DNA from: Eledone cirrhosa
Lineage: Eukaryota
Assembly: GCA_964016885.1 (NCBI GenBank)
Contig: OZ024746.1
Coordinates: 57,908,001-57,972,000, forward strand
Length of the DNA: 64,000 nucleotides
Reading direction: 5' to 3'
Shown: positions 28,431 to 51,485 of the stretch, in pieces
How positions within the stretch are numbered: the first letter of the stretch is position 1
Layout of the letters: the number at the start of each line of letters is the position of its first letter
The notes under the pieces: generated by a model
The model's database searches: none
Seen by the model: the letters and a program-made list of their open reading frames with translations, nothing else
What the model was told of the DNA's origin: nothing
Translations under genes and position numbers: made by a program

Positions 28431-28478
<48 letters not shown>

Positions 28479-28481
28479 TAT

Positions 28482-28526
<45 letters not shown>

Positions 28527-28599
28527 TATATTTACATACATAAATTAATCAAGGAAACAAGGTTCCTTTCGTTGTCATCATAAGTCCACGGGTGCGTTA

Positions 28600-29440: not shown

Positions 29441-30026
29441 CCTGTCGTCGCTAGTACGTCAAATGCGATACATCCCTGTATGCGCAGCTTCTAAACGACT
29501 AACTATTACATTCTCTAGTCTGCCGTTTTCTGTTGCTAACGCTTTCCTGAATCTCAGGGATACTATTCCAATTATCTTTTTACCGAAACCTGTTGTTTAT
29601 AATAAACATCAGCAGATCTTGTTTGACTAGTTCACTAATGTGTTTCCTGAATGTTGTTACCGCAGAAAAGGACACTTTTAGTTTCCTGTAACCATGTGCT
29701 TGTTTATTCGTATGATCTAGGTTAACTGTACATAGACTTCACAAATTGAGCTTTATATACTCCACTATCTGTAACTGGGGACATCTCATACAGACTCTTT
29801 ATGCTCCCATTATAAATTTGATGTGTGATATGATTTAACAAAACTAGTGTACAAACAAAAATATATGAATCATTCAAACAAAATAAATATACAATGAAGA
29901 AAGCCTAAACAAACAGTCACCTCGAACGCTAGAACAAGTACCCTCTCGCAGTTATCCTACTCCAATGTACAGCCGCACACTCAAGATAGGCGCATTCATT
30001 CTAAGCCAACGATTGAGGGTTAACAA

Positions 30027-30877
30027 CAGTTCCAAATCCTTTTTACTTCCCACTTTAAGTCCTGGTATCGGTTAATATTCTCCCTCTCCTTCTCTTGCAC
30101 TCTCGTGTCGAATGGGCAGGCCACATCCACAATCAGGCACGATCTTATTTCTTTGTCCAAAACCACCAGGTCAGGTCTATTGTGATCCAGTTTCTTGTCC
30201 GTCTGTATCCTAAAATCCCACAGCACCTTCACATGATCGTTTTCTATCACCGACTCTGGCTTATGCTCATACCACTTCTCAGAATGTGGTAAATTGTTTA
30301 CTTTGCATAGGAGCCAGTGGATTACCCTGCCCGTCACATCATGTCTCCAGCCTTATAGAGAGTCTGGGCTAGTTGTTTACACTAGGATACAATGTGAGCC
30401 ACAGTCTCCTCTCTCTCTCCACAGATCCTGCACAGTGGGCTAGCCTCCTCCTTGTAAATATGGTGTTTCAACCACTTCGTTTTGAGGGCCTGTCTTGCGC
30501 AGCCATTAACATTCCTTCTGTAGCCTTTTTAAGGTATCCTATTTTCAACCAGTTCCATGTCTGTGGATCTCTGAATTCAGTTTTCTCAAAGAAGGTACTA
30601 TGAAGGGATTTTACCTGAAGGCTGCTCTTTCTCCTCGTTGTTATTTCCTCCCTGGACATCCCTGGTCTATTGTCCTCTCCTTCAGTACAGTTCTGAGCAT
30701 TGACTCCTTACTATCAGTCACGTATTTGTGTAGGTTGTTTTTCTCCATCTGAACACAGTCCTCTATGCTGATAAGACCTCTTCCACCTTCAGATCTTCTT
30801 AAGTAGAGTCTATCGACATCACTCCTCTTGTGGAACATGTAGATAGTCAATAATTTCCTAGTCTTCCTATCCATTTC
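30027..30877 (-). mobile_element. R4/Dong-like RLE retrotransposon, family A, internal fragment
   Basis: WDFRIQTDKKLDHNRPDLVVLDKE...DVACP...YQDL restriction-like endonuclease; highly similar to 42358-43645; frameshifted; truncated at both ends. Confidence 0.85.

Positions 30878-30919
<42 letters not shown>
30878..30919. repeat. T-run plus (TTA)n junction tract
   Basis: Separates the family A fragment from the Tx1 element. Confidence 0.95.
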
Positions 30920-31135
30920 GAATGCCATGGTTGACGGAGGCTCGGCTCTGTAAGGTATAGTAATTTTTAACCGTTAAAACAATTGTAAATTGTTTAAAAC
31001 TTGAACCAAATTGTTGATAAAGACACCCTCCTCCTCGTGAGAGGGGTCTTTCTGTCCGTTATTTGGCCCTTCGGGGTTAAATAACCAGTTATTGGGGTTT
31101 TGTACCCAAAATTTCATTTTAAACAAAAAAACAAC

Positions 31136-33232
31136 ATGGCTACGAAAAAGAAATTTCATACGTCACTCCCACTCATTCCGTCTTCTTCTTCCTCAATCAT
31201 CACTACAGCAGAGAGAAGATTGTCTCTCTCCCTCCCTTCTTTAAATGTGTCTCTCTCCCTCCCTTCTCTTTCGCAAGCGACGAAAGAAAAGAAAAGTCTC
31301 GTGCAAAGCGTGCAAGGTTTCTCCACGACGACGACGACAGCGACGAAACAGGTGTGCGGGAAATACGAAAACCCAGTTCATTCGTCTGACGTCAGGAATA
31401 ATAGCAGTAGCAGCCGTAATAACAACAGCAACAGTGACAATGAAAACAACAGTAGCAGCCGCAACAGCATCACCAGCAGCATAAACAACAACAGCATTAG
31501 CAGCAGCAACACCAACAACAACCACAGCAACAGCGGCGGAGGCAGTAGTCGTAGTACCTGCAGCAACAACAAAAGTACCAGCAGCTCTGACGACAACAAC
31601 AACAGCAGAGAAAAACCAATCTCATTTGCAGGTATTGCGAAAAACCTGGAAACAATCCTCATAACAAATGAGGAATTAGAGGAAGCGAAGAAGATGGTGA
31701 CAAAGAACGGACACCGAGCAATCTGCAAGGCAGCGAAAAATTTTTTCGAAACCCAAGAGCACTGTACGGTCACGTACCGTACAGTAAGTACAAAATCCCG
31801 TAGGGTGGAAAGAGCCACAGAGGCCCAAATACAAAAAGCCTTGGGGTCTGTGTGGCAGAGGAAAACGCACATCACCCGAGGCAAAAAATACGCCACCGTA
31901 GACGTACTTTTTGCCACACCCCAGGAGGCAAAGGCCCAATCAGTAGTGACCCTAAGGAGCGAGGAAATGGTGTTGGTGCCCTCCTACTGTGGGCAAAAAA
32001 TTGTGAGGGTCAAACTAACCCACGTCCCCCCCGGAATGACCCCTTCTTGGCTGGCCGCGTCTGTCCTCGTCGGAATCGAGGACAAAACAACTGTACTGCA
32101 AGTACAGAAAAAAGTAAGAGAAGATTGGGTCGGCTCCTCCATTGAGATGCTAATCCAAACCAACCAGGAGTGCATCGAAGCTATCCCGGATGTGATAGAC
32201 TTCGATAACGGCACTCAACTGCCCATAAGTGTTGAGGGCAAACGCCCGAAATGCTTTCGCTGTGGATCGAAGACTCACCTCAGGGCCTTCTGCAACGAGA
32301 AGACCATGAGAAAGGAGAAAACCCCCCTCCTCCCGAATCCGGTTCCACGGCTACCAGCAACAGGACAAGCGGCAACCAGGAACGATAGGTCCGTGGCACC
32401 CATACCCACTCCACGGAAATCAAAGACAGCAGCAGCAGTGGAAATATTAACAACAACAACAGCAATACCAAATGCAGCTGCAACAGAGACTCCAGTGCAA
32501 ACATCACCAACAACAACAAGTGAAAGAGTGGAGCTGGTACCCCTCCCCGACCTTACAGAATCAGACATGGAGTGTGAGGTGGGAGAGGGATGGCAAAAGG
32601 TCGTAAGAAGGCACAAACGCAGAAGCAGCGCATCGTCGCCTTTGAAAAGGGAGGAAAGAAATGAGAAAAGGGTAAAGTCTACTGCAAAGAGACCCACAGC
32701 AGCAACACCACCAACACCATCACCACCCACACCAGCACCACCATCACCACCGGCGACAACCCCACCGCCAACAACACCTTCAACACCACCACCACAAGCA
32801 CCAACATCGCAAACACAACAACAAAACACACACACCCAGCAACAACGACAAGAAAATAGCAGAACCACACCCCACCCCCAGAAAAACAAATGCACGGCAA
32901 TAAACACACACAACAAGAAACTAATGACTTACATAATTGAACACACAGACATTTCACAACAGGACTACATAATACCAGCACCAATCAAAACGCCAACTAA
33001 CATAAGACTGCTAAAAATAGCACAGAAACAATACACAAACATTAAAACGAAATTCCCCAACGCAGTTGGTGATTTCAGGGACCTAGGAGGAACCATTAAT
33101 CGAAGAGTATATTCAGACATTCTCTTAGAAGAGCCGACGACCAGCCGAAGGGACGATTCAACGGTCCCTTCACCAGACGATCAAGTGAAAAGGGATGTAA
33201 AAACCATCCCTCCTCTACCAAAAGTACGGTAA
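31136..33232 (+). CDS. Tx1-like ORF1 (gag-like nucleic-acid-binding protein), ~698 aa from the first ATG
   Basis: Open frame; CX2CX4HX4C knuckle CFRCGSKTHLRAFC; N/S-rich and P/T-rich low-complexity flanks. Confidence 0.88.
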   Translation: MATKKKFHTSLPLIPSSSSSIITTAERRLSLSLPSLNVSLSLPSLSQATKEKKSLVQSVQGFSTTTTTATKQVCGKYENPVHSSDVRNNSSSSRNNNSNSDNENNSSSRNSITSSINNNSISSSNTNNNHSNSGGGSSRSTCSNNKSTSSSDDNNNSREKPISFAGIAKNLETILITNEELEEAKKMVTKNGHRAICKAAKNFFETQEHCTVTYRTVSTKSRRVERATEAQIQKALGSVWQRKTHITRGKKYATVDVLFATPQEAKAQSVVTLRSEEMVLVPSYCGQKIVRVKLTHVPPGMTPSWLAASVLVGIEDKTTVLQVQKKVREDWVGSSIEMLIQTNQECIEAIPDVIDFDNGTQLPISVEGKRPKCFRCGSKTHLRAFCNEKTMRKEKTPLLPNPVPRLPATGQAATRNDRSVAPIPTPRKSKTAAAVEILTTTTAIPNAAATETPVQTSPTTTSERVELVPLPDLTESDMECEVGEGWQKVVRRHKRRSSASSPLKREERNEKRVKSTAKRPTAATPPTPSPPTPAPPSPPATTPPPTTPSTPPPQAPTSQTQQQNTHTQQQRQENSRTTPHPQKNKCTAINTHNKKLMTYIIEHTDISQQDYIIPAPIKTPTNIRLLKIAQKQYTNIKTKFPNAVGDFRDLGGTINRRVYSDILLEEPTTSRRDDSTVPSPDDQVKRDVKTIPPLPKVR

Positions 33233-33267
33233 GTGGTCTTTCCCATCTTTTCCACTCTATTTTAAAC

Positions 33268-36200
33268 ATGACCTCACTCAGAATAGGCAGCATAAATGCG
33301 CGTGGCTTGGGGTCGTCATGGAAGCAGGGTCACCTGCTCAACGACCTCAGGTCACTAAACATAGATGTAGTGGCCATCAGCGAGACCAGAATCTCCGAAG
33401 CACGGGCCTTCGCACCGATCTTCGGCGGCTACGATGTGTACGCATCTCCCAGCCGTCCTGGATCCGGTGGAGGAGTTGCTGTGCTTTTTCGGAGAGGTTT
33501 GGATCTCGCCATACGGGCCATCTTCCTGGACCCAGAGGGTAAGCTGGTGGTGCTGGACGTGACCAGCGGAGACGGGCAAGCTTTCAGGCTAGTGGCCGTC
33601 TATGCCCCGACAGGAGCAGGGCGGCCTGATTTCTTCCGGCGTCTGGAGACCTTTCTTGGAACGTCCCGCTCTTTAGTGTTAGTGGGCGACTGGAACGGGA
33701 TCTTAGATGCACGCTGGGACTGTGTGGGATTAGCGGATAGGGGTGGAGGGTGCAAGAGCCTCACCAACCTGCTCAGGCGTTTTGAACTGTCTGACAGGTA
33801 CCGATTGGATTTCCCGAATGTGCCAATGTGGACTTGGACAAACCGCATAGGGTCATCCAGATCATATCTAGATAGAGTATTTTGTAGGGAAATAGATAGG
33901 TCTAGCATAGGCTGTCCACAATTCAAGATAGTCAGCTACACGGACCACAAATTCGTGACCTGTGTGCTTGACTTAGATAGGCTTCATAGACGAGGACCCG
34001 GCTACTGGAAGCTAAACGCGTCCTTACCAGCGCGCAAGGCCTACAGAGACCGGATTAGCGAACTAGTTAAGCGGGCGTTGACGGGGGCCATCGTCAACAA
34101 CAAGTGGTGGTTTGCTCTGAAAAGAGCGATTAGAATAGAATCGATTAGGTTTAGTAAGGCTTTAGCAATAGAGAAAAATAGAGCAGAGGGAGAACTAGTT
34201 AGAAAATTAGACGAGGCGCTTAGCAAAGGCATTGCGACCGACGTGCTTGCGGCGAAATTGGCCCTTGACCAATTCTTCAATGCAAAGCACGAAGGCTGCG
34301 TTGTCAGAGCTAGGGTGCGTGCTCTCAGACACGAGGGGACGAAAGCCGTTCAATGGGCCCGAGTGGCGGAGGCGCGTCGTGGCAACAAAGCCACGATCCG
34401 GTCTTTGGTGGACCACGACGGGCGCATGCTACTCGATCCCGGGCAAATGTGTGAAGCTTTTCAGCGACACTTCGCTCAGCTGTTCGGGGGCAGCGGGGGG
34501 CCGGGTAGAGGGATGGACTTTAGTGTCTACCTCGACGGACTGCCGCGGCTCTCGGCCACTGAGGCTAAGTGTTGCGAAAAGCCGATAACAGCCGCTGAAG
34601 TACGGGAGGCAATGACTGGCTGCACAAGGGGTAAATCGCCTGGTTTGGATGGTCTGCCCTATGAACTTTACGTACAGATGCCAGACTTGTTCGGAGGCCT
34701 CTTGGCGGACGTCTACTGCAACTGGCAACAGAACGGGAGAATTCCCAGTTCTGTGAGCCGAGGAGCGGTGGCACTGCTGAGAAAGGATCCGAACAAGGGG
34801 GATAACATAGACAATTTCCGGCCCATAACTCTGCTAAACACAGAGTTTAAGATTTTGGCCAAGGTGCTAGCAAAGAGGTTGGCGCTTGTCGTTGGTGGTC
34901 TGGTGGGAGAGGCGCAGACAAGCGCCATTCCCGACAGATCCATCCACGACAACCTCCACCTCATGCGATACATCGTAGAGAGGGTAGCTAGGGAACCTGT
35001 CACGGGTGGGTCCTTGATCAATTTAGATCAGTCGAAAGCTTTCGATAGGGTCGACCATCGTTACCTAGCGGCAGTCCTGAGGGCGGCTGGCTTTGGGCCC
35101 GTCTTCAGAGGCTGGATCGCTGCCATGCACAGCGACATCTGCTCTGTGGTGAGAGTGAACGGTCACCTGTCGGAACCGTTCAACATCATGCGCTCGGTCC
35201 GCCAAGGATGTCCCCTCTCGTCCCTCTTGTACGTATTGACTCTCGAGCCATTACTGCACAAACTGGAGACGTTGAGGGGAGTCCCGCGCGAACTAGGATG
35301 CGGAAGATCCGTGTCAGCATATGCGGACGATGTCACCGTAGTGGTGTCGAACGCCAAACACATCGAGGCGATCGGCACTACACTAAGAGAATACGAAGCG
35401 GTGACAGGAGCAATGATCAACCAGGAAAAGTCAGTGGGCCTGCAGCTCGGCACCTGGAGAGGCAGGTCCATGCCGTCCAACAGCGTCGTCGGGCGCTGGA
35501 CGGACGGACCGGTTAAATTGCTAGGGGTCTGGTTCGGTCCGGACCTCCAGACGGACAAAAACTGGGACGAGGTGACGAGCAGGGTGGCTTCTCTCACCCA
35601 GAAATGGGCGGAGAGGAAGCTATCCCTGAAAGGTCGAGCGGAGGTGGCTAACGCGTACATCGCGTCTGTCATCTGCTACCGCCTGACCGTCGTACCTTGT
35701 CCTAAGCCTCGCCTGACTGCACTGGAGCGTTTGCTCTTTCGCTTTTTGTGGAAGGGACGTGCTCCGATGGTCAGGCGGTCCATCTGTTGTCAACACCCGC
35801 TACGTGGAGGGCTGGGCATGCCGTGGCTGATGATGCGCAGGCACGCGCTCAGGCTACGACATCTCCACCTCTTCCTCGACGGTGATCAGGTGTGGTCGCC
35901 GTTTGCTAGACGCGTTTTTCCCCAGCTCGTTTCCTTGACGGAGCTGCAGTCCTGGGTCAAGCGAAGACCGAGAGGGAGCGCCTGGAGACTGGAATGTCTT
36001 CAGGCGCTCACAGCCCTCGACCAATCGGGCAATGTGATCGGTGGAAACTCCACCTCGGCGTTCTATAGAGGATTAGTGGAGGGGAAGAGCGACGACGTAC
36101 TTGGGGAAACTCTAGGCGTCGACGAAAATCAACTAGCCAATCTCTTCGGAAGAACTTTCGGGCCGGGGCCTATGGACAACTTCCAGAAATCTCTGGCCTG

Positions 36201-36687
36201 GCAGTGCTACCGAGGAGCCTTGCCAGTTCGGGATAAACTCTACAGGCATGGAGGTGCCGTCAGCCGGGCATGTCCGAGATGCGCGCAGGGCGACGAAACC
36301 GTCCTGCACGCACTCGTCCAGTGTCCGAAAATTGCTGACTTGTGGGTTTATGTTGAACACCTGCTGTCGCGTTTAGGACGGATCCAGCTATCATCTGAGT
36401 CTATCGTGAGGATTGCCCCGCCCTCCTCCTTTAGCCGGGAAGGGCAGGCAGTTTTTATCTGTCTGGTGGCCATGGCGAAAGAGATAGTATGGTGGACACG
36501 TTTGAAAGGGCTGAAGACAAGCACTTACCTCTTCGGTGATGCTCTGATTGACTTTTTCAAATTTCATTTGAAAAGGAAAATCAGAGTAGAGAGGGAAGTG
36601 CTCTCTTCCCAGCATTTTGTTGAAAGATGGGTGAGAGAAGCAAGAATGGCCCGAGTGAATGGGCCGACTCTGAGTATATATCTGTAA
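33268..36687 (+). CDS. Tx1-like ORF2: APE endonuclease, reverse transcriptase and C-terminal CCHC; intact, 1139 aa
   Basis: SINARG, ISET, GDWN, YLDR and TDH (APE); KSPGLDG, RPITLLN, DQSKAFD, QGCPLS and YADD (RT); CPRC..ETVLHALVQC. Confidence 0.96.
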   Translation: MTSLRIGSINARGLGSSWKQGHLLNDLRSLNIDVVAISETRISEARAFAPIFGGYDVYASPSRPGSGGGVAVLFRRGLDLAIRAIFLDPEGKLVVLDVTSGDGQAFRLVAVYAPTGAGRPDFFRRLETFLGTSRSLVLVGDWNGILDARWDCVGLADRGGGCKSLTNLLRRFELSDRYRLDFPNVPMWTWTNRIGSSRSYLDRVFCREIDRSSIGCPQFKIVSYTDHKFVTCVLDLDRLHRRGPGYWKLNASLPARKAYRDRISELVKRALTGAIVNNKWWFALKRAIRIESIRFSKALAIEKNRAEGELVRKLDEALSKGIATDVLAAKLALDQFFNAKHEGCVVRARVRALRHEGTKAVQWARVAEARRGNKATIRSLVDHDGRMLLDPGQMCEAFQRHFAQLFGGSGGPGRGMDFSVYLDGLPRLSATEAKCCEKPITAAEVREAMTGCTRGKSPGLDGLPYELYVQMPDLFGGLLADVYCNWQQNGRIPSSVSRGAVALLRKDPNKGDNIDNFRPITLLNTEFKILAKVLAKRLALVVGGLVGEAQTSAIPDRSIHDNLHLMRYIVERVAREPVTGGSLINLDQSKAFDRVDHRYLAAVLRAAGFGPVFRGWIAAMHSDICSVVRVNGHLSEPFNIMRSVRQGCPLSSLLYVLTLEPLLHKLETLRGVPRELGCGRSVSAYADDVTVVVSNAKHIEAIGTTLREYEAVTGAMINQEKSVGLQLGTWRGRSMPSNSVVGRWTDGPVKLLGVWFGPDLQTDKNWDEVTSRVASLTQKWAERKLSLKGRAEVANAYIASVICYRLTVVPCPKPRLTALERLLFRFLWKGRAPMVRRSICCQHPLRGGLGMPWLMMRRHALRLRHLHLFLDGDQVWSPFARRVFPQLVSLTELQSWVKRRPRGSAWRLECLQALTALDQSGNVIGGNSTSAFYRGLVEGKSDDVLGETLGVDENQLANLFGRTFGPGPMDNFQKSLAWQCYRGALPVRDKLYRHGGAVSRACPRCAQGDETVLHALVQCPKIADLWVYVEHLLSRLGRIQLSSESIVRIAPPSSFSREGQAVFICLVAMAKEIVWWTRLKGLKTSTYLFGDALIDFFKFHLKRKIRVEREVLSSQHFVERWVREARMARVNGPTLSIYL

Positions 36688-36935
36688 ACTAAAGGTGGAA
36701 AACTGGGAGAGGGCACTTGCCTTGGTGGTCAGGGTCATTGTGGCTTTTTACTGGGCTTTCTCCACAAATGTCCCTCCGAAGTCTCCCCCCTATTGGGGAA
36801 TTTTTCATTGTTATTTTTGTTACATCCTCTGTTTTTGTTTTTTTACACGCAGAAATGCCCATTTGTACCGTCCTGCATTGTCCTGCACTGTCCTTAATGT
36901 CTACTTTATGTAAACCCTTGTGGTTAATAAAGAAA

Positions 36936-36937
<2 letters not shown>

Positions 36938-36986
<49 letters not shown>
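36938..36986. repeat. (ATT)n junction between the Tx1 3' end and the R4/Dong 3' end
   Basis: Pure ATT tract with tail-to-tail elements on either side. Confidence 0.95.
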
Positions 36987-36987
<1 letters not shown>

Positions 36988-39900
36988 AGCTGCATTTATC
37001 TTGCTTTATGTTCATACGAGTTATCACCAAGTCACAACCAGTGACCTCAAGAGACAACAAGGTCCGCCATGTTCAAGAAAGAACATACATATTCACACAT
37101 GCATCTTTAGTGTTTAGACCTGTGATGTACTTATATTGACAGAATCTTCCTTAGTATATGGGCAGTTCCCATTAATACTATCTTTTGTATTTCTCCTATA
37201 CGCGGGTTTCCTGGGATTTGCGATATGTAATCATTAGACCCCTTAGGTATCATTCCCAGAGCGCCTACAACCACTGGTATTGTTTTAGTTCTCAATTTCC
37301 ACATTTTACCAATTTCTATCTCCAGGTCCTTATACTTGCTCAATTTTTCAAATGTTTTTATAGATACATTCTTGTCTATTGGAACAGACATATTGGAACA
37401 GACATATTTCAATATTATATCAGGTCTGTTTGCATTTATTTTTCGGTCTGTTTGGATGCTAAATTTCCACAAGATTGAGATGTGATCTTTTTCAAGTATG
37501 GGAGGTGGTTGATGCTCCCACCAATTCTTTTGATGGGGCAGGTCAAAATGCTTACACATTATCCAATGTATGAATCGTGCAGCTCTGTCATGCCTGTTTA
37601 GGTATTCGGTTGGAGCTATAGGACTGCACATTGAAATTATATGGTCAATGGTCTCTGGTTGTTTTTTGCATACACGGCATAATGGGCTGCACCCATTTTT
37701 TATTATGTTGGCTTGGTAATTTTTTGTTGGCAGACACTGATCTTTTGCCGATATAATCAGTCCTCCAGTCTCCGATTTCAGTCCAGAGGATGCCAACCAC
37801 TGATGGGTTAAAGTTTTGTCAACATCAGGATTGTTAGCTCGCTCTGGGTATTTTCCATACAGAGGCTGTTCTTGCCATTTCTTAGCCAGTTTCTGTAGCA
37901 GTTCTTTCTTTGCAGTTACTTTTACCTGCTTTGCTTTTTCTGTGTTTTCCATTTCAGCAGTAAATGGGACTTCTGAAATTTGTAGTCCATTACTGTATCA
38001 TTGTGCATCTTTTGTAATGGAATATGATCTTTTGATGCTTTCGTGTTTCAAAACGAGTTTGATCATCCAATCAAGTGATTCCCTTAGATATGTAGATAAT
38101 CCAATTGTTGCAGTTTTCAACGCAATGTCTAACTGGATTAATCCACGTCCTCCTTCTTTCCTAGGTAGATATATTCTATCTATATCTGCCTTAGGGTGAT
38201 GCATTCTGTGCATGGTTAAGAATTTTCGAATTTTTGTATCGAGCCTACGGATCTCTGTGCTTGACCAGTTGATGAAATTGTGACTGTAGGTTACTACTGG
38301 TATGGCAAGCGTGTTTATGGCATCGATCCTATTCCTTGCATTCAATTCCGTTCTTAAGATTGCTCTTACTCTGCGGTAACATTCCTTCCTTATCCTTTCC
38401 CTCATTGTCGAGTGCTTGATTCCGTCTCCTTCACAAACACCTAGATATTTGTAAGTTTTTTCTTGATCAAGTTCCCTTATCACGTTCCCCCGATCAAGAT
38501 TAATGTCTGAACTCTTCAGCAGCTTTCCTCTGGTGAACGTTGCTTTGGCGCATTTATCTAGTCCAAACTCCATTTTAATATCATCACTGAACTGCTTCAC
38601 AGTGGATAATAGCCCTTGCAATTGTTCATCATTTTTTGCAAATAGTTTCAGGTCATCCATATAGAACAAGTGATTAATAGTTTTGTCATAGACTTTATAT
38701 CCATGTTTTGTTTCATTGAGCATTTTACTTAATGGTATAAGTGCGATGCAGAATAAAAGCGGTGATAAAGAGTCACACTGAAAAATTCCACAATTAATAT
38801 TAACTTCTCCAGCTTCCAGTGATTTTGTTTCACTATTCAAAAGGAGTGTCGTTTTCCATGTTTTCATACTGAATGACAAAAACCTCCTGACAACGGGGGA
38901 TACTTTGAAAATCTCTAAACATTTTTCAATCCAACTGTGTGGCAAACTATCAAATGCTTTTTTATAATCTATCCAAGCAATCGATAGATTTTTGTGTCTA
39001 TTATGACAATCTTCCAGAATCATTTTGTTAACCAGAAGCTGATCCTTACAGCCATATGAGCCTCGTTTACACCCTTTCTGCTCAATGGGAAATAGGTCAT
39101 TTGTTATCAGGTGGTCATATGTGTATTCAGTTAGGACTGATGTTAAAATTTTATACATTGTGGTCAAGCAAGTTATCGGTCTGTAATTTTTGGGATTGTT
39201 TGTCTCATCATTCTTCGGAAGCAGGAATGTAATGCCGTTAACTAGCCATGAAGGTATCTTTTCTGGCTCCTTAACTATTTCATTGTAAAGTTGGGCTAAC
39301 AGCTCATGAGACTCTGTGAAGGCATTTATCCAAAAGTTTTGTATTTTGTCTTTTCCTGGGGATTTCCATTTGCTGGTTTTTCTTAGAGCCAAGCGCAACT
39401 GTTCAACTGTTATATTTTCCCATGTTTGTTCCTCAAGGTGAGCTGTATCTTTCATTTGTCTGTCTATCCATGGGGCATGTGTGTTATGAACTTTTTCTTC
39501 GGCTCAGATCTTTTCCCAGAATTCTTGCACTTCCTCCTTGGGTGGTATTGATTTAGCAGTTATTGTTGACTTACCAATTTTTCTGTAGAAGTTTCTTTGG
39601 TTGTTTTTGAACATATTATTGTCCTTATAGAATCTAGATCGTTTTTCAAAGCGCCTTATACGAGCAGCTTTGGTCGACACTTTTTGCTTGATTATTTCTA
39701 TCAGCATGTCTATGTCACATGTTGATTTTATACTGTCCTTTTTTTTCGATTTTCTAAGTTTAGTTTGTTTAACACGTTCACCTACTTTATAGTTTGTTAA
39801 AATTTCTGTCAGATCGGAGAAGGTTTATTTGGCGATTGATGTTCTCTTGCCAAGTAGATTTCTTGTGGGAATTCCTTTGTTTTTTCATCTTCAGTCCACA

Positions 39901-40921
39901 TAAGTAAGTGGTGACTTTAGCCGATGCATAATAGAGATGATTTAAATCAGTAATGTTTAGTTTGTTTGTGATGATAATGTTTTTGAGAATTATGTTAGTC
40001 TTGTGTATTATCTTTTGGTTCTGTTTGGAGTTCTGGATCTTAGGGAGGGTGTCTCGTTGCCCCATGTCAGATTCTTTCATTTTCATCCATTCGATCATAA
40101 TTTCATCCTTCAAGTTGGCAAGTTCATTCTCATTAATTTCCTTATCATTTACGATCTCATTATTTTCATTTGGAGTTTCATCCTGAGCATGCACTCCCTC
40201 CATTTTTTCGATCCTTTCTTTAATTTGTTCTGTTGCCAGTGATTCCGCCCCAACCCTGGGATTCGAAGTGTTACAGTTTACCTCGTTTTCACTGACACAT
40301 GTTTCATTTTCCCTTCGTTGACTTTGTGCTAATAGCTTGATCTGATCAATTTCTATATCAGTTAGTAACTTTTTTCTTACAATATTTCTTCGTATATTGG
40401 CTAGTTTGTTACTGTCAATATAGCCTCTGTTTTCGGGATGTTTCTTTTTCCAGTTGATATCTGTCTGTTCTGTATTCGATGTATTTGATGGGTAGTACAT
40501 GGCAGTGTAGAAAGCCTCAAGGACTTCTTTATTATCTTCCCTTGACCATTTTTCTCTCTTTTTCTTTGAATTTCTTGGTGGTGAGCATGGAGGGCCAACA
40601 GTAGGAGTATTCCGGTTATGGGAGGTCTCCAGCTCCGAAGTGATGGGAAGGATTGAACCATTAGCTGATTTTTCGACCCCAGTCTGGTTCCTCCCTGAGG
40701 GATGCGGCCCTTTTTTACCCGGGTGACGGCCGATCCGGTATGAGATTTTATCATTAGACATTTACTTTATTTTGTCGCGTTTTATCCTTATCCGCCAAGG
40801 GGTAATCATTTCGTGTTACCACTTCTAGAACGAGTGTCAACCAAGACTAGAGGGGTCGTTCTCCCCTAGAGACACGGCTATTCCCCGCCGGCCGCCATCC
40901 CGGTATTTCTTGGTCACGGGG
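36987..40921 (-). mobile_element. near full-length R4/Dong-like RLE retrotransposon, family B
   Basis: Single-ORF architecture, GC-rich ~160 nt 5'UTR and ~145 nt 3'UTR ending in (TAA)n; the 5' boundary is approximate. Confidence 0.88.
37131..40761 (-). pseudogene. disrupted RT-RLE polyprotein of family B
   Basis: Pieces 40761-39787, 39707-39504, 39455-37998 and 37952-37131; KSPGKD, YRPITCL, DYKKAFDS, YMDD, CRVC..ETIDHIISMC, RPDI; stops, frameshifts and a lesion in the RLE. Confidence 0.9.
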
Positions 40922-41920
40922 TTTTCTTTTTGTTGTTTTTTTTAAAATTGTTATTATCATGAGTGGTTCCTTAATGTGAGCATTGCGTGGCTTAAGAATG
41001 AAATTATTAATAATTGTCTCCACTCCAGGTACAAGGCCAGCAATCACCCAGTGCATTACAATAATATAATATACTTTTTGTTGTAGTTGGCTGTTATTGT
41101 TGTTGGCTATGTCGGTGGTGGTGCCGGGGCTTTTTATATTGTTGGTGAGGAAGGGGTGAGCCAGCAGTCCCATATTTGTTGATATTGTCGTTTGGCCTTG
41201 GCCAGGTAACTAAGTCAATCTATTTATATATTTTGCTAGCCACTCCCTTGTCTAGTGATACCCCCACCTTCCCCGTTCTCTCTCAAGTTAACAGGGGAAT
41301 AGTGGTGGTAGCATTGAAGGAGTGGTGGCGGCGGGGAGATGTGGGAGACAGTAGCGGCGGTATCGATACTGAGACAGTGGTGGTGGTGATGTCGATACCG
41401 AGGCAGTGGTGGTGGTGACGTGATCGTATTACTGTAGTGATGGTGTTGTAGCGGTGGTAGCAATGAAGGAGTGGTGGCGGCGGTGATGGGATAGTGGTGG
41501 TAATGATGGCAGTAGTGAGTGGTGGTGGTGAAATTCCCGCTATCTGGCTGTTGTGTTTAGTGTACACAGAGAGGTGATGGGGTAGGTGTTGTATCTAGTT
41601 TCTGGTGTTGTTTGGCTGTTCTATATAGCGTAGACAGAGGATGGGGAGGGGTTCTTCTTCCAATTATAGCCATTTTCCTTTTTGAATATACAATGTACAA
41701 TACAAAGTTGAATATTTGAATATTTGACCCTTATAACAATATATTTTGGGTCCGAATTTTTTGGGGCTCAAGCCGGATGCTTTACGTAGCATTTGTACTA
41801 AGAGTTGTTATTTCACAAATGATTTAAATATGTTAAAAATTCAAAACTTACGGGAGCGATGTCATGACCTTCCGTCACCTCGTGTGTCTTCTTCCCTTAT
41901 TACTATTATTATTATTGTTA

Positions 41921-42284
41921 TTGTTATTCCTTGAATCTCAGTCATTGATGTTGGTTAACTGGAAAGTCCGTTGGATTGAATATCAAGCCACTACCTGCAG
42001 CCTCAGATATTCAGGACGTATCGGAGGGTTCTTGCTGTTCCAAGCAAGCATGCCTTTTGAAGCGTTCCAAAAAGCGTGAAGGGGCCGATTTTCTTTAACC
42101 ATCCCTGGAAACCTTTGGAGATAGTCCCCAGTGCGCCTATGACAATCGGGATCACTTTGACTTCATGGCAGTTCCAAATCCTTTTCACCTCCCACTTTAG
42201 GTCCTGGTATCGGTTAATTTTCTCCCTCTCCTTCTCTTGCACTCTCGTGTCGGACGGGCAGGCCACATCCACAATCAGGCACGA

Positions 42285-42285
<1 letters not shown>
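41921..42285 (-). mobile_element. R4/Dong family A, 5'-truncated (~365 bp)
   Basis: C-terminus ..LQKACLLGTARTLRYVLNI plus 3'UTR; (TTA)n on both sides. Confidence 0.9.
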
Positions 42286-42357
<72 letters not shown>

Positions 42358-43645
42358 GTTGTTATTCCTTGAATCTCAGTCATTGATGTTGGTTAACTGG
42401 AAAGTCCGTTGGATTGAATATCAAGCCACTACCTGCAGCCTCAGATATTCAGGACGTATCGGAGGGTTCTTGCTGTTCCAAGCAAGCATGCCTTTTGAAG
42501 CGTTCCAAAAAGCGTGAAGGGGCCGATTTTCTTTAACCATCCCTGGAAACTTTTGGAGATAGTCCCCAGTGCGCCTATGACAATCGGGATCACTTTGACT
42601 TCATGGCAGTTCCAAATCCTTTTCACCTCCCACTTTAGGTCCTGGTATCGGTTAATTTTCTCCCTCTCCTTCTCTTGCACTCTCGTGTCGAACGGGCAGG
42701 CCACATCCACAATCAGACACGATCTTTTTTCTTTGTCCACAACCACCAGGTCAGATCTATTGTGTTCCAGTTTTTTGTCCGTCTGTATCCTAAAATCCCA
42801 CAGCACCTTCACCTGATTGTTCTCCATCACCGCCTATGGCCTATGCTCATACCATTTCTCAGAATGTGGTAAATTGTTTACTTTGCACAGGTGCCAGTGG
42901 ATCACCCTGCCCATCACATCTTGTCTCCAGCCCTTATAGTGGGTCTGGGCTAGGTGTTTACACTCGGACACAATGTGAGCCACAGTCTCCTCTCTCTCTC
43001 CACAGATCCTGCACAGTGGGCTAGCCTCCTCCTTGTAAATATGGTGCTTCAACCACTTTGTTTTGAGGGCCTGCTCCTGCGCAGCCATTAGCATTCCTTC
43101 TGTAGCCTTTTTGAGGTCTCCTCTTCTGAACCAGTTCCACGTCTGTGGATCTCTAAATTCAGTTTTCTCAAAGAAGTTACTATGAAGGGATTTTCCCTTA
43201 AGGCTGCTCTTCCTCCTTGATGTTATTTCCTCCTTGGACATCCCCTGGCCTACTGTCCCCTCCTTCAGTACAGTTCTGAGCATTGGCTCCTTACTATAGG
43301 TCACGTATTTGTATAGGTTGTTTTTCTCCATCTGAACACAGTCCTCTATGCTGATAAGACCTCTTCCACCCTCAGATCTCCTTAGGTAGAGTCTATCGAC
43401 ATCACTCCTCTTGTGGAACATGTTGTAGATAGTCAATAGCTTCCTAGTCTTCCTATCCATTTCTTTTTGTTCAGCAACATTCCATCTCAGAATTCCCGCA
43501 CTGTACCTAATAATAGACACAGCTCGGGAATTTACTGCGCTTATGGCATTTCTGCTGTTCAGATGTGCCTTCAATACGCTCCTTACTCTCCGAATGTATT
43601 CAGTTCTTAACAATTCCTTCATTTTTTTGTTCTTTATGCCATCAA
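42358..43645 (-). mobile_element. R4/Dong family A, 5'-truncated (~1.3 kb)
   Basis: EGGRGL, CRICGEREETVAHIVSEC and the RLE domain; one in-frame stop; same 3'UTR as the 41921 copy; (TTA)n on both sides. Confidence 0.92.
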
Positions 43646-43668
43646 TTATTATTATTATTATTATTATT

Positions 43669-44498
43669 TGCATTTATCTTGCTTTATGTTTATACGAGTT
43701 ATCACCAAGTCACAACCAGTGACCTCAAGAGACAACAAGGTCCGCCATGTTCAAGAAAGAACACACATATTCACACATGCATCCTTAGTGTTTAGACTTG
43801 TGATGTACTTATATTGACAGGATCTTCCTTAGTATATGGGCAGTTCCCATTAGTACTATCTTTTGTATTTCTCCTATACGCGGGTTTCCTGGGATTTGCG
43901 ATAAGTAGTCGTTAGACCCCTTAGGTATCATTCCCAGAGCGCCTACAGCCACTGGTATTGTTTTAGTTCTCAATTTCCACATTTTTCCAATTTCTATCTC
44001 CAGGTCCTTATACTTGCTCAATTTTTCAAATGTTTTTATAGATACATTCTTGTCTATTGGAACAGACATATCAATTAGCAGGCATACCCTCCTTTGAAAG
44101 TCCTTCAATATTATATCAGGTCTATTTGCATCTATTTTTCGGTCTGTTTGGATGCTAAAGTTCCACAAGATTGAGATGTGATCTTTTTCAAGTATGGGAG
44201 GTGGTTGATGCTCCCACCAATTCTTTTGATGGGGCAGGTCAAAATGCTTACACATTATCCAATGTATGTATTGTGCAGCTCTGTCATGCCTGTTTAGGTA
44301 TTCGGTTGGAGCTATAGGACTGCACAATGAAATTATATGGTCAATGGTCTCTGGTTGTTTTTTGCATACACGGCATAGTGGGCTGCACCCATTTTTTATT
44401 ATGTTGGCTTGGTAATTTTTTGTTGGCAGACACTGATCTTGTGCGGATATAATCAGTCCTTCAGTCTCCGATTTCAGTCCAGAGGATGCCAACCACTG

Positions 44499-44500
<2 letters not shown>
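43669..44500 (-). mobile_element. R4/Dong family B, 5'-truncated (~830 bp)
   Basis: Near-identical to 36990-37805 but with an intact RLE (RPDIILKDFQRRVCLLIDMSVP); (TTA)n on both sides. Confidence 0.92.
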
Positions 44501-44546
<46 letters not shown>

Positions 44547-44834
44547 GGCGACCTACGTAGTAAATCGTATCATCGTGAGCTCCGCAAAGGTTTGTTATTT
44601 CCGTTTGTTAAAAATTGCCATTTATGGAAAATTTTGATTGTTAACTATATATAAGCGCACATACATTGTTTTCCGAAAAGGACACCCAAAAAGATTGGGG
44701 CCTTGTGCCCAAAATTTAAACTTTTATGATTATCAAAAAAATTCTTTGAAAAAAAATGGCTAATTCACCACTGCACCAAGCAGCTGAAAGCCTTTCTCAC
44801 AAATTAACACCTCACACCGACACCACCATTGTAA

Positions 44835-46712
44835 ATGATATTACGTCTGCCAACACACAATTTAAGCACTAGCAATATTTTTAATTTGTCTCAGGCAGAC
44901 ATTCATTTCCCGCCATTATCAATGACTGCAGGTGTTAAAGCCACCACCACCACCGCGACAACAGAAACAAAAGGAAAAAATAAATCAACTCGTGATGTCG
45001 AAATATTTTCAACCAAAATGGACTCTCCCAAACCGACTTTCAATGACGTCACCACAACCACAACTGAAACTAAAATTAATAATAACAAAAATAACGATAG
45101 CAACAACAACAACAACAATGACATTAAAAAAACAACCCTGAGTTTTGCCAGAGTAGCAAAACAGTTCGAAGCATTTACGGTAACTCCGGAGGATTTAGAA
45201 AATGCCAAACAAATGGTAAAGAAAGATGGGTACAGGGTCAGCCTCACCCCGACCCCACCCCCACCTAATAAAATGGAGAATTGGCGCCTATGCACCGTGT
45301 CGTATCGAACAATAAATGTAACATCGCGCCGAGTGGAACGGGCATCCGAATCCCAAATCCCAAAAGCTTTGGGACGTGTGTGGCAAGAAAAACCCACATC
45401 AGACGTGGGCAGAAGTATGGAACCGTGGACGTGTTCTTTGAGACACCAGAGGAGGCTAGAGAACACTCCATGGCCCCATTAAGAAGTGACGACTTCACAC
45501 TCGTCCCAAGCTATTGTGGCCAGAGACTCGTAAAGATCAGGGTGACCCACGTTCCACCGGCCATCGAAATTCCCTGGCTAATAGCGGCCGTCCTCGGCGG
45601 CATCGAAGCCAACACAAAGATAATAGCAATAGCAAAAGAAAAGCAGGAGAACTGGTCCGGATCTGGGATGGAGCTCCTGATCCAAGCGGACCAAAAAAGC
45701 ATTGAGGAGATCCCAGAGGTAATAGACCTCACTGACGGCAGCCACCTCATCGTAATTGTCGAGGGCAGAAGGCCTAGGTGTGTCGTTTGTGGTGAAGGAA
45801 CACACCTAAGGGCTTTCTGCCCTCAGGCTAAAAGGTTGATGCCACCTCTCCTACCCACCCCAGTGACACAACCATCAACACCACCAGTAGCAGAGATGGC
45901 AGCAACAACTGTAGCAGCAACAACAGAAGCAACTATAACAGCAACAACCGAGAGCAACAGTAGCAAAACCAACACCACCTCCACCAGCAAAACCAACACC
46001 ACCACCACCCAACGCTTCAGAACTAGCACCAGCGCCTACACCATCCACCACGCCACAACCCAAACTAACGCCTGTGGAGAATTTTCCACTCCCAGGCCTA
46101 TCACAACTGGAGACAGATTGTGACGACGAGGAGTGGGAAACGGTATCAGGAAAAAAAAAGAAACCAAAAAAGAAAAAATCCTCTTCCTTCCCCCTCCAAA
46201 AACAAAATACAGAGGGAAACAAATAAATTAACAAACAAAATAGTTAGGACAGATATGCCACCATCCACACCAGCATCACCAACCCCATCAACCCAAACAC
46301 CAATACCATCACCATCATTAACCCCAACACCACCATCACCTACACCACAAAAGTCACCAAAATGCGAAACAGAAACAAACCCACAACAAACGCAAACAAA
46401 TCAAAACAACCAAAACGATACGCACTACACAGCATTAAATTTGAACAACAAGCAATTATTACACTACATCCAACACAACACCAGCATCACAGAAAAAAGA
46501 CTACACAACGACCCCAAAATTCACACCACCTCACACATACAAATCACTCGCATCACACCGATAACGTACATGACACTAAAACAAAAATTCCCCAAAGACA
46601 TCGGAGACTTCCGACAAGCACTCTCCAGGAGGATTTATAAGGACATCCTTCCTGAGGGGGCCATAAGCAGTGAAAAGGATGGAAAAACCGTCCTTCCTCT
46701 ACGAGAAGTAAG
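44835..46712 (+). pseudogene. frameshifted Tx1 ORF1 of a divergent type
   Basis: Three overlapping frames; CTVSYRT, LVPSYCGQ and the knuckle CVVCGEGTHLRAFC. Confidence 0.85.
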
Positions 46713-46750
46713 GTATGTGGTCTTTCCCATCTTTTCAACTCCTTTTCAAC

Positions 46751-49700
46751 ATGACCTCACTCAGAATAGGCAGCATAAATGCGCGTGGCTTGGGGTCGTC
46801 ATGGAAGCAGGGCCACCTGCTCAACGACCTCAGGTCACTAAACATAGATGTAGTGGCCATCAGCGAGACCAAAATCTCCGAAGCACGGGCCTTCGCACCG
46901 AACTTCGGCGGCTACGATGTGTACGCATCTCCCAGCCGTCTGGGATCGGGGGTAGGAGTTGCTGTAATTTTTCGGAGAGGTTTGGATCTTGCCATACGGG
47001 CCATCTTCCTGGACCCAGAAGGTAAGTTGGTGGTGCTGGACGTGACCAGCGGAGAAGGACAAGCTTTCAGGTTAGTGGCCGTCTATGCCCCGACAGGAGC
47101 AGGGCGGCCTGATTTCTTCCGGCGTCTGGAGACCTTTCTTGGAACGTCCCGCTCTTTAGTGTTAGTGGGCGACTGGAACGGGATCTTAGATGCACGCTGG
47201 GATTGTGTAGGATTAGTGGATAGGGAAGGAGGGTGCAAGAATCTCACCAATCTGCTCAGGCGTTTTGAACTGTCTGACAGGTACCGAATGGATTTCCCGA
47301 ATGTACCAATGTGGACTTGGACAAATCGCATAGGGTCATCCAGATCATATCTAGATAGAGTATTTTGTAGGGAAATAGATAGGTCTAGCATAGGCTTTCA
47401 ACAATTCAAGATAGTCAGCTACACGGACCACAAATTCGTGATCTGTGTGCTTGACTTAGATAGGCTTCATAGACGAGGACCCGGCTACTGGAAGCTAAAC
47501 GCGTCCTGACCAGCGCAAGGCCTACAGAGACCGGATTAGCGAACTAGTTAAGCGGGCGTTGACGGGGGCCATCGTCAACAACAAGTGGTGGTTTGCTCTG
47601 AAAGGAGCAATTAGAATAGAGTCCATCAGGTTTAGTAAGGCTTTAGCAATAGAGAAAAATAGAGCAGAGGGAGAATTAGTTAGAAAATTAGACGAGGCGC
47701 TTAGCAAAGGCATCGCGACCGACGTACTTGCGGCGAAATTGGCCCTTGACCAATTTTTCAATGCAAAGCACGAAGGCTGCGTTGTCCGAGCTAGGGTGCG
47801 TGCTCTCAGACACGAGGGGACGAAAGCCGTTCAATGGGCCCGAGTGGCGGAGGCGCGTCGTGGCAATAAAGCCACGATCCGGTCTTTGGTGGATCACGAC
47901 GGGTGCATGCTACTCGATCCCGAGCAAATGTGTGAAGCTTTTCAGCGACACTTCGCTCAGCTGTTCGGGGGCAGTGGCGGGCCAGATCGAGGGGTGGACT
48001 TTGGTGTCTACCTCGACAGACTGCCGCGGCTTTCGACCACTGAGGCGGAGTGTTGCGAAAAGCCGATAACAACCGCTGAAGTATGGGAGGCAATGACTGG
48101 CTGCACAAGGGGTAAATCGCCTGGTTTAGATGGTCTGCCCTATCAACTTTACGTACAAATGCCAGACTTGTTCGGAGGCCTCTTGGCGGACGTCTACTGC
48201 AACTGGCAACAGAACGGGAGAATTCCCAGCTCTGTGAGCCGAGGAGCAGTGGCGCTGCTGAGAAAGGATCTGGACAAGGGGGATAAAATAGATAATTTTA
48301 GGCCCATAACTCTGCTAAACACAGAGTTCAAGATGTTGGCCAAGGTGCTAGCAAAGAGGTTGGCGCTTGTTGTTAGTGGTCTGGTGGGAGAGGCACAGAC
48401 ATGTGCTATTCCCGACAGATATATCCACGACAACCTCTACCTCATGCGATACATCGTAGAGAGGGTAGCTAGGGAACCTGGCACGAGTGGGTCCTTGATC
48501 AATTTAGATCACTCTAAACTTTCGATAGGGTCGACCATCGTTACCTAGCGGCAGTCCTGAGGGCGGCTGGCTTTGAGCCCGTCTTCAGAGGCTGGATTGC
48601 TGCCATGCACAGCTACATCTGCTCTGTAGTGAGAGTGAACGGTCACCTTTCGGAACCGTTCAACATCATGCGCTCAGTCCGCCAAGGATGTCCCCTCTCG
48701 TCCCTATTGTATATATTGACTCTCGAGCCATTACTGCACAAACTGCAGACGTTGAGGGGGCACCCGCGCGAACTAGGATGTGGAAGATCCGTGTCAGCAT
48801 ATGCGGACGATGTCACCGTAGTGGTGTCGAACGCCAAACACATCGAGGCGATCGGCATTACACTAAGAGAATACGAAGCGGTGACAGGAGCAATGATCAA
48901 ACAGGAAAAGTCAGTGGGCCTGCAGCTCGGCACCTGAAGAGGTAGGTCCATGCCGTCCAACAGCGTCGTCGGGCGCGGGACGGACGGACCGGTTAAATTG
49001 CTAGGGGTCTGGTTCGGTCCAGATCTCCAGACGGACAAAAATTGGGACGAGGTGACGAGCAGAGTGGCTTCTCTCACCCAGAAATGGGCCGAGAGGAAGC
49101 TATCCCTGAAAGGTCGAGCGGAGGTGGCTAAAGCATACATCGCGTCCGTCATCTACTACCGCCTGACCGTTGAACCTTGTCCTATGCTCCGCCTGACTGC
49201 GCTGGAGCGTTTGTCCTTTCGCTTCTTGTGGAAGGGACGGGCTCCGATGGTCAGGCGGTCCATCTGCTGTCAACACCCGCTACGTGGAGGCCTGGGCATG
49301 CCGTGGCTGATGATGCGCAGACACGCGCTCAGGCTACGACATCTCCATCTCTTCCTCAACGGTGATCAGGTGTGGTCGCCGTTTGCTAGACACGTTTTTC
49401 CCCAGCTCGTCTCCTTGACGGAGCTGCAGTCCTGAGTCAAGCGAAGACCGAGAGGGAGCGCTTGGAGACTGGAATGTCTTCAGGCGCTCACAGCGCTCGA
49501 CCAATCGGGCAATGTGATCGGTGGAAACTCCACCTTGGCGTTCTATAGGGGATTAGTGGAGGGGAAGAGCGACGACGTACTTGGAGAAACTCTAGGCGTC
49601 GACGAAAATCAACTAGCCAATCTCTTCGGAAGGACTTTCGAGCCGGGGCCTATGGACAATTTCCAGAAATCCCTGGCCTGGCAGTGCTACCGGGGTGCTT

Positions 49701-50164
49701 TGCCAGTTCGGGATAAACTTTACAGGCATGGAGGTGCCGTCAGCCGGGCATGTCCGAGATGCGCACAGGGCGACGAAACCGTCCTGCACGCACTCGTCCA
49801 GTGTCCGAGCATTGCTGACTTGTGGGTTTATGTCGAACACCTGCTGTCACGTGTAGGACGGATCCAGCTATCAGCTGAGTCCATCGTGAGGATTGCCCCG
49901 CCCTCTTCCTGCCGGGAAGGGCAGGCAGTTTTTATCTGTCTGGTGGCCATGGCGAAAGAGATAGTATGGTGGACACGTTTGAAAGGGCTGAAGACGAGCA
50001 CTTACCTCTTCGGTGATGCCCTGATTAACTTTTTCAAATTTCATCTGAAAAGGAAAATCAGGGTAGAGAGGGAAGTGCTCTCTTCCCAGCATTTTGTTGA
50101 AAGATGGGTGAGAGAAGCAAGTATGGCCCGAATGAATGGGCCTTCTCTGAGTATGTGTCTGTAA
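46751..50164 (+). pseudogene. Tx1 ORF2 with stops and frameshifts
   Basis: Colinear with 33268-36687; TGA stops at 47507, 48935 and 49433; frameshifts near 47513 and 48518. Confidence 0.92.
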
Positions 50165-50407
50165 ATTAAAGGTGGAAAACTGGGAGAGGGCACTTGCCCT
50201 GGTGGTCAGGACCACTGTGGTCTTTTAATGGGCTTTCTCCACAAATGTCCCTCGGAAGTCTCCGCCCTATTGGGGAATTTTTCTTTGTTATTTTATTTCA
50301 TCCTCTGTTTTTTTTACACGCAGAAATGCCCATTTACACCGTCCTGTATTGTCCTGTACTGTCCTTAATGTCTACTTTATGTAAACCCTTGTGGTTAATA
50401 AAGAAAA

Positions 50408-50461
<54 letters not shown>

Positions 50462-50599
50462 CATTATTGCTTGGCAACGGGGATTGTCTGTCGTGCTGTT
50501 AGTGGGATTCGTAGTAATGGCGGTAGCAGTGGTGGTAGTGGCCTTTCAGTTATGTTTAGCTGTTCTGTGGAGGTGGCTTTTTCCGTCATTATATAAAAC

Positions 50600-50792
50600 T
50601 TTGGGCGATGAATTAGCACTATCGGTAGCGGGTCGGACGCCATGCTTCGCAACACTGTTACGTCCCACTACGGACTGAGTTCAAATCCCGCCGAGGTTAA
50701 CTTTGCCTTTCATCCTTACGGCGTCGATAAAATAAAGTACCAGTTATGTACTGGGTATTTGATGGCTTTTTGCCAAAAGTAGAAACAATTAT
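50600..50792 (+). mobile_element. complete S1 SINE
   Basis: GGGCGATGAATTAGCACTATCGG...GAGTTCAAATCC...AAAAGTAGAAACAATTAT. Confidence 0.85.
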
Positions 50793-51087
50793 ACAAAACT
50801 TTGGGTGGCGTAAACTAAGAATATTGAAATTAAAGTGATATTAAATATTTGGGCCCAAGACCGAAATATTATGTAGTAGCACGTCTCGAGGACAAAGGTT
50901 GATACCTTATGTCGCATTCTCATCAAGATGTATATCAAAAGAAGCGCTTTAAACAACAGTTCACCAGGATGCAACGCAATGGAGTCAAACCTGTGATCTC
51001 AACTTCGTCAGAAACAGCAGCATTTGTATTTTTAAATTCCTATATTGTATACTTTATACAATACATTCATTTGGTCTATACTTCTTC

Positions 51088-51325
51088 CTAATATATCTTT
51101 TCAACCAGCATTTTTCTACATTCACTATTGTGTTCAGTCTCATTTTCTGTTTGTATCATATGCATATGTATTTCTTTCATTCTCATTTCTTCATTATCAC
51201 ATTTTACTGAATTTCTGCTCTTGGTGTTTTACTCATTTACATTTACTATCTTATTCACTTCATACAGTCTTTTTTTTCTATTTCTATATTACTATATTAT
51301 CTATTTCATTTATAATACATATATG

Positions 51326-51335
<10 letters not shown>
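51088..51335. repeat. dispersed ~250 bp repeat, copy 2
   Basis: Matches 28170-28430. Confidence 0.85.
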
Positions 51336-51390
<55 letters not shown>

Positions 51391-51403
51391 GTTAAAATAC
51401 ATA

Positions 51404-51485
<82 letters not shown>

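Follow-up and report, generated by a model that had tools for sequence, protein, structure and literature searches.

Do two unrelated classes of retrotransposon endonuclease use the same three-base repeat from opposite strands? The question is raised by a nest of long interspersed elements (LINEs) and ATT tracts at 30027-50468 of a 64,000-nucleotide stretch of the Eledone cirrhosa genome (GenBank assembly GCA_964016885.1, contig OZ024746.1, positions 57,908,001 to 57,972,000 of the forward strand; the window in what follows, with position 1 its first letter). The nest holds seven LINE copies in two stacks: five belong to two families with a restriction-like endonuclease (RLE-A and RLE-B), and two are young elements of the Tx1 type with an apurinic/apyrimidinic-type endonuclease (APE). 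We consider it fairly probable that this young Tx1 family prefers the (ATT)n that is also used by R4/Dong-type elements, and that it inserts from the other strand, by mirror nicking at TpA.

Layout of the tract nest

An earlier note on this DNA had listed seven ATT tracts; all of them were recovered in place, and all read ATT on the + strand (Table 1). The first stack runs RLE-A#1 (-), T1, Tx1#1 (+), T2 and RLE-B#1 (-), and the second T3, RLE-A#2 (-), T4, RLE-A#3 (-), T5, RLE-B#2 (-), T6, Tx1#2 (+) and T7. The stacks are separated by a spacer of ∼940 bp, which includes a piece of a short interspersed element (SINE). Perfect AAT-class tracts of at least four units cover 295 bp within 30027-50468 versus 28 bp in the remaining 43,558 bp of the window, and the longest perfect tract outside the nest has five units; ATT-class tracts make up 0.5% of the window. 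Tract contact was found at 12 of the 14 element ends. The two tract-less ends are the 3' end of RLE-A#1, which is lost at 30027, and the 5' end of RLE-B#1, where a degenerate A-rich flank may be what erosion has left of the first tract of that stack.

The earlier note had also tied orientation to endonuclease class. For the seven copies of the nest this was borne out, as the five RLE copies lie on the - strand and the two young Tx1 copies on the + strand, but the rule does not extend to older Tx1-lineage fragments, which lie on the - strand. Perfect sorting by class has a chance of 1/64 under a coin-toss model, and the orientations within one stack are not independent.

T1 and T6 each lie between two 5' ends and are therefore the tail of neither neighbouring element; T2 and T7 could be Tx1 tails. 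Both Tx1 copies begin directly after a full ATT unit despite having different 5' untranslated regions (UTRs) and different first open reading frames (ORF1). The ATT/ATT register was observed at nine of 12 tract edges, or at seven of 10 when identical family ends were merged (P ∼0.02 against an expectation of 1/3). All four Tx1 edges share this register, and the step it defines is TpA on both strands. The claim that Tx1 inserts into (ATT)n was thus supported within the window, by the head-to-head 5' tracts, the distinct 5' halves of the two copies and the late arrival of Tx1#1 described below; its reach is limited to two full-length copies. On those two copies, (ATT)n is probably a genuine target of Tx1 here.

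Table 1. Tracts, element copies and related sequences in and beside the nest (positions in the window).
Feature	Position	Strand	Description and evidence
T1	30885-30919	+	(ATT)11; head-to-head, RLE-A#1 5' end versus Tx1#1 5' end; tail of neither
T2	36938-36986	+	(ATT)16; tail-to-tail, Tx1#1 versus RLE-B#1
T3	41897-41928	+	Interrupted; borders stack 2 on the left, beside the 3' end of RLE-A#2
T4	42285-42366	+	(ATT)24 plus interrupted units; RLE-A#2 5' end to RLE-A#3 3' end
T5	43645-43668	+	(ATT)8; RLE-A#3 5' end to RLE-B#2 3' end
T6	44499-44546	+	(ATT)16; head-to-head, RLE-B#2 5' end versus Tx1#2 5' end
T7	50409-50468	+	(ATT)17, outer edge interrupted; at Tx1#2 3' end
Tx1#1	30920-36937	+	Full length, intact; open reading frames, Pfam, ORF1 look-alikes, endonuclease model
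Tx1#2	44547-50408	+	Full length, decayed; ORF2 and 3'UTR 94.6% identical in DNA to Tx1#1
RLE-A#1	30027-30884	-	5'-truncated, 3' end lost; 3 frameshifts, 1 stop; 92.4% to RLE-A#3
RLE-A#2	41929-42284	-	5'-truncated; 3 differences from RLE-A#3 in ∼357 bp
RLE-A#3	42367-43644	-	5'-truncated; CCHC and RLE motifs; 1 stop
RLE-B#1	36987-40921	-	Near full length; open reading frame 40761-37131, 2 stops, 1 frameshift; 5' end approximate
RLE-B#2	43669-44498	-	5'-truncated; open frame; RLE motif intact; 94.2% to RLE-B#1
Degenerate A-rich / TAA-like 5' flank of RLE-B#1	40922-40960	.	Sequence
Old, decayed piece of a Tx1-lineage ORF2 (end of the endonuclease, linker and reverse transcriptase; internally deleted)	28597-29795	-	tblastn, nhmmer
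Old Tx1-lineage 3' end (ORF2 C-terminus and 3'UTR)	29811-30002	-	Alignment; fused to broken RLE-A#1 end

Independent insertions and their probable order

The two Tx1 copies are 94.6% identical in DNA from 33184 onward (ORF2 and 3'UTR), the similarity beginning ∼80 bp upstream of the ORF2 start, whereas their 5' halves (30920-33184 and 44547-46669) differ, with distinct 5'UTRs and an ORF1 core of ∼51% amino acid identity. From the alignment, this difference looks like a swap between subfamilies. The ORF2 pair had a dS of 0.127 and a dN/dS of 0.21, which was similar in all four blocks, and dN/dS was ∼0.25 for RLE-A#1/#3 and ∼0.3 for RLE-B#1/#2. The low ratios show that the members of these three pairs came from separately selected donors and were inserted separately. 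Each RLE copy also has its own truncation point. The close pair RLE-A#2/#3 could have arisen by another insertion, by template jumping or by duplication of the local DNA. The derivation of the two stacks from one segmental duplication was considered and rejected on the distinct Tx1 5' halves and the dN/dS values.

Tx1#1 had no disabling lesion in 5517 bp, versus seven in 4491 bp for the RLE copies on either side of it (P=0.004, assuming intact donors and equal decay). As Tx1#1 is lesion-free between decayed RLE copies, it most likely landed last, in a tract that already joined both. In the history that we propose for stack 1, RLE-B#1 and RLE-A#1 would have come first and Tx1#1 would have entered the tract between them. 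In stack 2, Tx1#2 was probably first, and RLE-B#2, RLE-A#3 and RLE-A#2 would then have inserted into its 5' tract and into each other's tails.

Domains and relatives of the two element classes

Tx1-clade elements have an ORF1 with an RRM-type region and a CCHC knuckle. In Tx1#1, ORF1 (31136-33232) contains an RRM-like region and such a knuckle, and ORF2 (33268-36687) encodes APE, reverse transcriptase (RT) and zinc finger domains (Pfam Exo_endo_phos, RVT_1 and zf-RVT). The two ORFs, the N-terminal APE, the RT and the C-terminal zinc finger of ORF2 are all features of the clade. A Pfam search of the Tx1 ORF1 gave no RRM or CCHC match; the knuckle is conserved among ORF1 relatives, and the look-alikes found in the atlas were zf-CCHC and ZCCHC3 RNA-binding domains. 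The 3'UTR of Tx1#1 ends in a polyadenylation-like hexamer, and despite this hexamer just upstream poly(A) was seen at neither Tx1 3' junction. All catalytic motifs of the endonuclease (EN) domain are present in both copies. The predicted EN fold had L1 EN as its best match (TM 0.83), and the sequence matches in the PDB were also to L1 EN. The model was alignment-based (pLDDT 93; 38 for the single-sequence version), and the fold search supports the APE class and is uninformative on specificity.

In an RT tree of 57 rows, none of which is a named Tx1 family, the Tx1 copies joined Argonauta and unnamed proteins within a supported group holding fish and turtle proteins, and stood apart from the plant and algal rows and from named turtle and fish relatives. 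The closest named relative, with 73% across the RT region, was a protein of Argonauta hians, which makes an octopod host probable; no Kibi or Koshi reference sequence was present among the named Tx1 matches.

The RLE copies have a single ORF, with RT followed by a CCHC motif and a PD..D/E..K restriction-like endonuclease, as judged from the translations and from motifs in relatives. Protein identity between families A and B is just 38-41%. The R4/Dong clade, unlike R2, is without N-terminal C2H2 zinc fingers. The RT of the RLE copies was nearest to R2 proteins in the PDB, and RLE-B#1 showed 57-64% amino acid identity to unnamed RLE proteins that have no N-terminal zinc fingers; a pattern check found these fingers absent in nine of nine RLE relatives, and none was visible in the RLE-B#1 N-terminus. 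Because of the nearness to R2, the CCHC and RLE motifs and the relatives without N-terminal zinc fingers, both families fit, by their sequences, the R4/Dong clade. There was no named Dong sequence among the 120 RLE matches listed, and the C-terminal part of the RLE protein had no meaningful match in the PDB.

On the sense strand, (TAA)n was found at eight of the 10 RLE ends; of the others, one is deleted and one degenerate. Interrupted units (AAC among AAT, sense strand) follow both RLE-A 3' ends (41897-41928 and 42357-42366), which suggests that the tail was copied from the donor. An HDV-like ribozyme was found at neither the RLE-B#1 nor the Tx1 5' ends with Rfam or with strict and relaxed home-made descriptors applied without a positive control; the fold z-score was 0.85, and RLE-B#1, a decayed copy, is the only RLE copy that retains its 5' end. 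Part of the RLE motif of RLE-B#1 was lost through a small deletion. A 14-bp tandem repeat lies at 37390-37410, where RLE-B#2 has a segment that is 18 bp longer and carries part of the RLE catalytic motif.

Proposed mechanism and alternative explanations

In the mechanism that we propose, the Tx1 APE domain would nick the AAT strand at a TpA step, and an RNA ending in AUU repeats would anneal to the freed end and prime reverse transcription, so that the new Tx1 copy would be flanked by ATT at either end. For the RLE families the reaction would be the mirror image, with the ATT strand nicked at this TpA, which is the sole self-complementary dinucleotide in the repeat. Each insertion would divide one tract into two usable ones, and a net growth of the repeat by insertion appears likely. 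The self-growing arrays put forward in the earlier note are plausible in this respect, with two RLE tails (T4 and T5) re-entered by the next RLE, but the subdivision of one long old tract fits too. In stack 2 the five tracts add up to 246 bp, and dinucleotide tracts in the window reach 92 bp; one long old tract, cut up and followed by slippage, would look similar to stack 2. We regard as doubtful the wider proposal that an octopod Tx1 endonuclease has true AAT-strand specificity and cuts, from the opposite strand, at the same TpA as two Dong-type families, and that the three families add repeat and build landing sites for each other, so that mixed arrays grow genome-wide and form a main source of its (ATT)n microsatellites.

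Several observations weigh against the preference of the young Tx1 family for (ATT)n. The young copies number only two, both at one locus, and as both are full length a carried 5' tract would be indistinguishable from a target. The EN hairpin is equal in length to that of L1 EN, an enzyme of weak specificity, and most relatives have a longer one, so that it gives no positive sign of strict specificity. The old - strand Tx1-lineage fragments, which the earlier note had missed, have no ATT/AAT tract at their joins. Their strand shows that orientation here is not dictated by class, and the + rule applies to the young family only; the Tx1 lineage may formerly have had another target. In addition, two of the 10 RLE ends are without a clean tract, the lesion test of stack 1 depends on its assumptions about donors and decay, and the same test was not significant in stack 2 (P=0.35, with seven lesions assumed).

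Among the alternatives, it is unlikely, to begin with the one that fared best, that a lax Tx1 endonuclease preferring TpA or AT-rich sites nicks either strand, and that the AUU end of the RNA alone sets preference and polarity with no convergence of endonucleases. The missing poly(A) at both Tx1 3' junctions and the L1-like hairpin length would agree with this. A further point in its favour is that an L1-like cutter would prefer the T-rich strand, which would yield the polarity of Dong, opposite to the one observed. Annealing between RNA and target helps the insertion of SART1 and R1Bm (PMC7265360), but an exchange of EN domains between TRAS1 and SART1 shifts the target (PMC7265360), Tx1L EN reads ∼10 bp (PMC1919474), and the hairpin segment, a region that helps to set specificity in TRAS1 and R1Bm (PMC1919474), is identical in Tx1#1 and Tx1#2.

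It is less probable still that ATT was carried at both ends of the Tx1 transcript, as a tail and as a co-transcribed upstream repeat, that insertion was random and that the tracts then attracted Dong-type elements. The full length of both Tx1 copies would allow for this, as would stack 2, in which Tx1#2 is the most decayed copy. In stack 1, however, the lesion test makes Tx1#1 the youngest of the three copies (P=0.004), so that a chance landing on a tract-sized spot would be needed, and at the RLE-B#1 5' end, where a fresh ATT remainder is predicted, there is only the degenerate one.

That the stacks arose not by repeated insertion but by duplication in place, by ectopic recombination of tract with tract or as an assembly error is very improbable: the near-identity of RLE-A#2 and RLE-A#3 with their same interrupted tail, the 92% direct repeat that flanks the region and the past deletion marked by the fusion of RLE-A#1 to an old Tx1 end would suit it, but the Tx1 copies differ through their entire 5' half, dN/dS is 0.21-0.3 in three of the four pairs, the RLE copies differ in truncation point, and for six of the seven copies such an origin is already unlikely.

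Older Tx1-lineage DNA and surroundings

The old Tx1-lineage fragments lie outside the tract nest proper. The ORF2 fragment at 28597-29795 had tblastn matches of 30-48% amino acid identity to the Tx1 ORF2 and nhmmer E-values of 5e-51 and 5e-18, with 62-65% DNA identity. The 3' end at 29811-30002 reached alignment scores of 100-109 versus a background maximum of 81.5 (884 windows), at 68% identity. Within 28597-30002 the fragments are arranged head to tail, a 3' end followed by a 5'-truncated ORF2, and are fused to RLE-A#1, from which it follows that a deletion did occur here. An assignment of 28545-30026 to a long terminal repeat element was rejected, the segment being decayed Tx1-lineage DNA.

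The spacer at 40961-41896 contains the SINE piece (41005-41059) and a GGT-rich low-complexity stretch. Its part from 41000 to 41896 was considered on the - strand as a third Tx1 5' end, which would abut T3 and break the polarity rule. This candidate was rejected: the 5'UTR similarity had a z of 4.3 versus shuffles, but among 1274 windows its rank was no better than 11th and 35th, an ORF1 profile built from 31 relatives gave no match there, and the SINE piece falls inside this part.

The direct repeat that brackets the region (28170-28545 and 51087-51462) is ∼380 bp long, 92% identical and T-rich and ends in (TA)n; it is either a dispersed repeat or a local duplication. At 24347-26219 a 310-bp unit is repeated six times in tandem, with 99% identity between copies and (TA)n at the bounds. 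A SINE-like repeat, which we take to resemble octopus SINEs, forms a cluster of ∼10 copies in both orientations at 19501-21374, with scattered copies at 415-522, 10512-10607 and 50591-50793. Near-perfect inverted repeats, possibly like miniature inverted-repeat transposable elements, lie beside dinucleotide tracts at 1779-1894, 14465-14753, 53762-54012 and 56003-56474. Eleven ORFs outside the nest had no Pfam match above the curated cut-off.

Comparison with known systems

Published names of Tx1 target repeats refer to the sense strand. Microsatellite-specific Tx1 families include Kibi in (TC)n, Koshi in (TTC)n and crocodilian families in (TTCC)n/(TTTC)n (PMC4494074). Like Kibi and Koshi, the Eledone copies are two-ORF elements with a Tx1-type APE that sit in a microsatellite, and TTA is one base off TTC. 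In contrast to them, the repeat of the nest is ATT/TTA and not a TC-containing pyrimidine repeat (TC, TTC, TTCC or TTTC); the copies are likened to Kibi and Koshi by mode of targeting and are not assigned to them as members. A Tx1 family has been taken as target-specific where the same repeat flanks >20% of its copies genome-wide (PMC4494074); in a count within the window, ATT flanks two of the two young copies.

Dong belongs to the R4 lineage, has TAA on the sense strand at its 5' junction (primer) and carries an HDV-like ribozyme at its 5' end (PMC3774820). It targets TAA in Bombyx, Anopheles and the snail Biomphalaria (PMC3812793, which files Dong under the APE type). The RLE copies resemble it in the single ORF with RT before CCHC and RLE, in the absence of an N-terminal zinc finger and in the sense-strand TAA at most of their ends. 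They differ from it in that two families of such low protein identity use the same tracts and in that the searches at the 5' end of RLE-B#1 turned up no HDV-like ribozyme.

The earlier note had described the Tx1 family as having converged on the Dong target. This stands as a description and has precedent. Keno (APE, Tx1 clade) and Utopia (RLE) converge on one site in U2 snRNA genes (PMC4640811), and in Eledone, too, an APE Tx1 element and RLE elements would independently reach a common target. Keno and Utopia have identical 3' flanks, and hence the same orientation, and destroy a gene target, whereas the two classes in the nest face opposite ways and leave target at either end of a copy. TRAS1 and SART1 insert in opposite directions into (TTAGG)n, with TRAS1 cutting T^A (PMC7265360), and are likewise two families that meet in one simple repeat; the two belong to the R1 clade, share the APE class and use a telomeric repeat, in contrast to the two endonuclease classes and the interstitial microsatellite of the nest.

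The literature searched contained no ATT/TTA-specific Tx1 and no such mixed nest, Repbase, which may hold one, lying outside its scope. The excerpts of PMC3124438, PMC3747384, PMC5035012, PMC9115989, PMC8967140 and PMC10294476 make no statement on an ATT-targeting Tx1. Each ingredient of the proposal has precedent, and ATT is probably a new target, used by an element of a familiar type.

If a preference of the young Tx1 family for (ATT)n is true, ATT/TTA would join the known Tx1 targets. The nest would offer a natural case of two unrelated nucleases at work on opposite strands of one three-base repeat, with Tx1#1 as an intact donor, and the roles of endonuclease and RNA-DNA annealing in setting site and strand would become testable on the simplest substrate. 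Such a preference would further account for the build-up in harmless sites of Dong-R4 and L1-Tx1 families, both recently active in Octopus vulgaris (PMC13282606).

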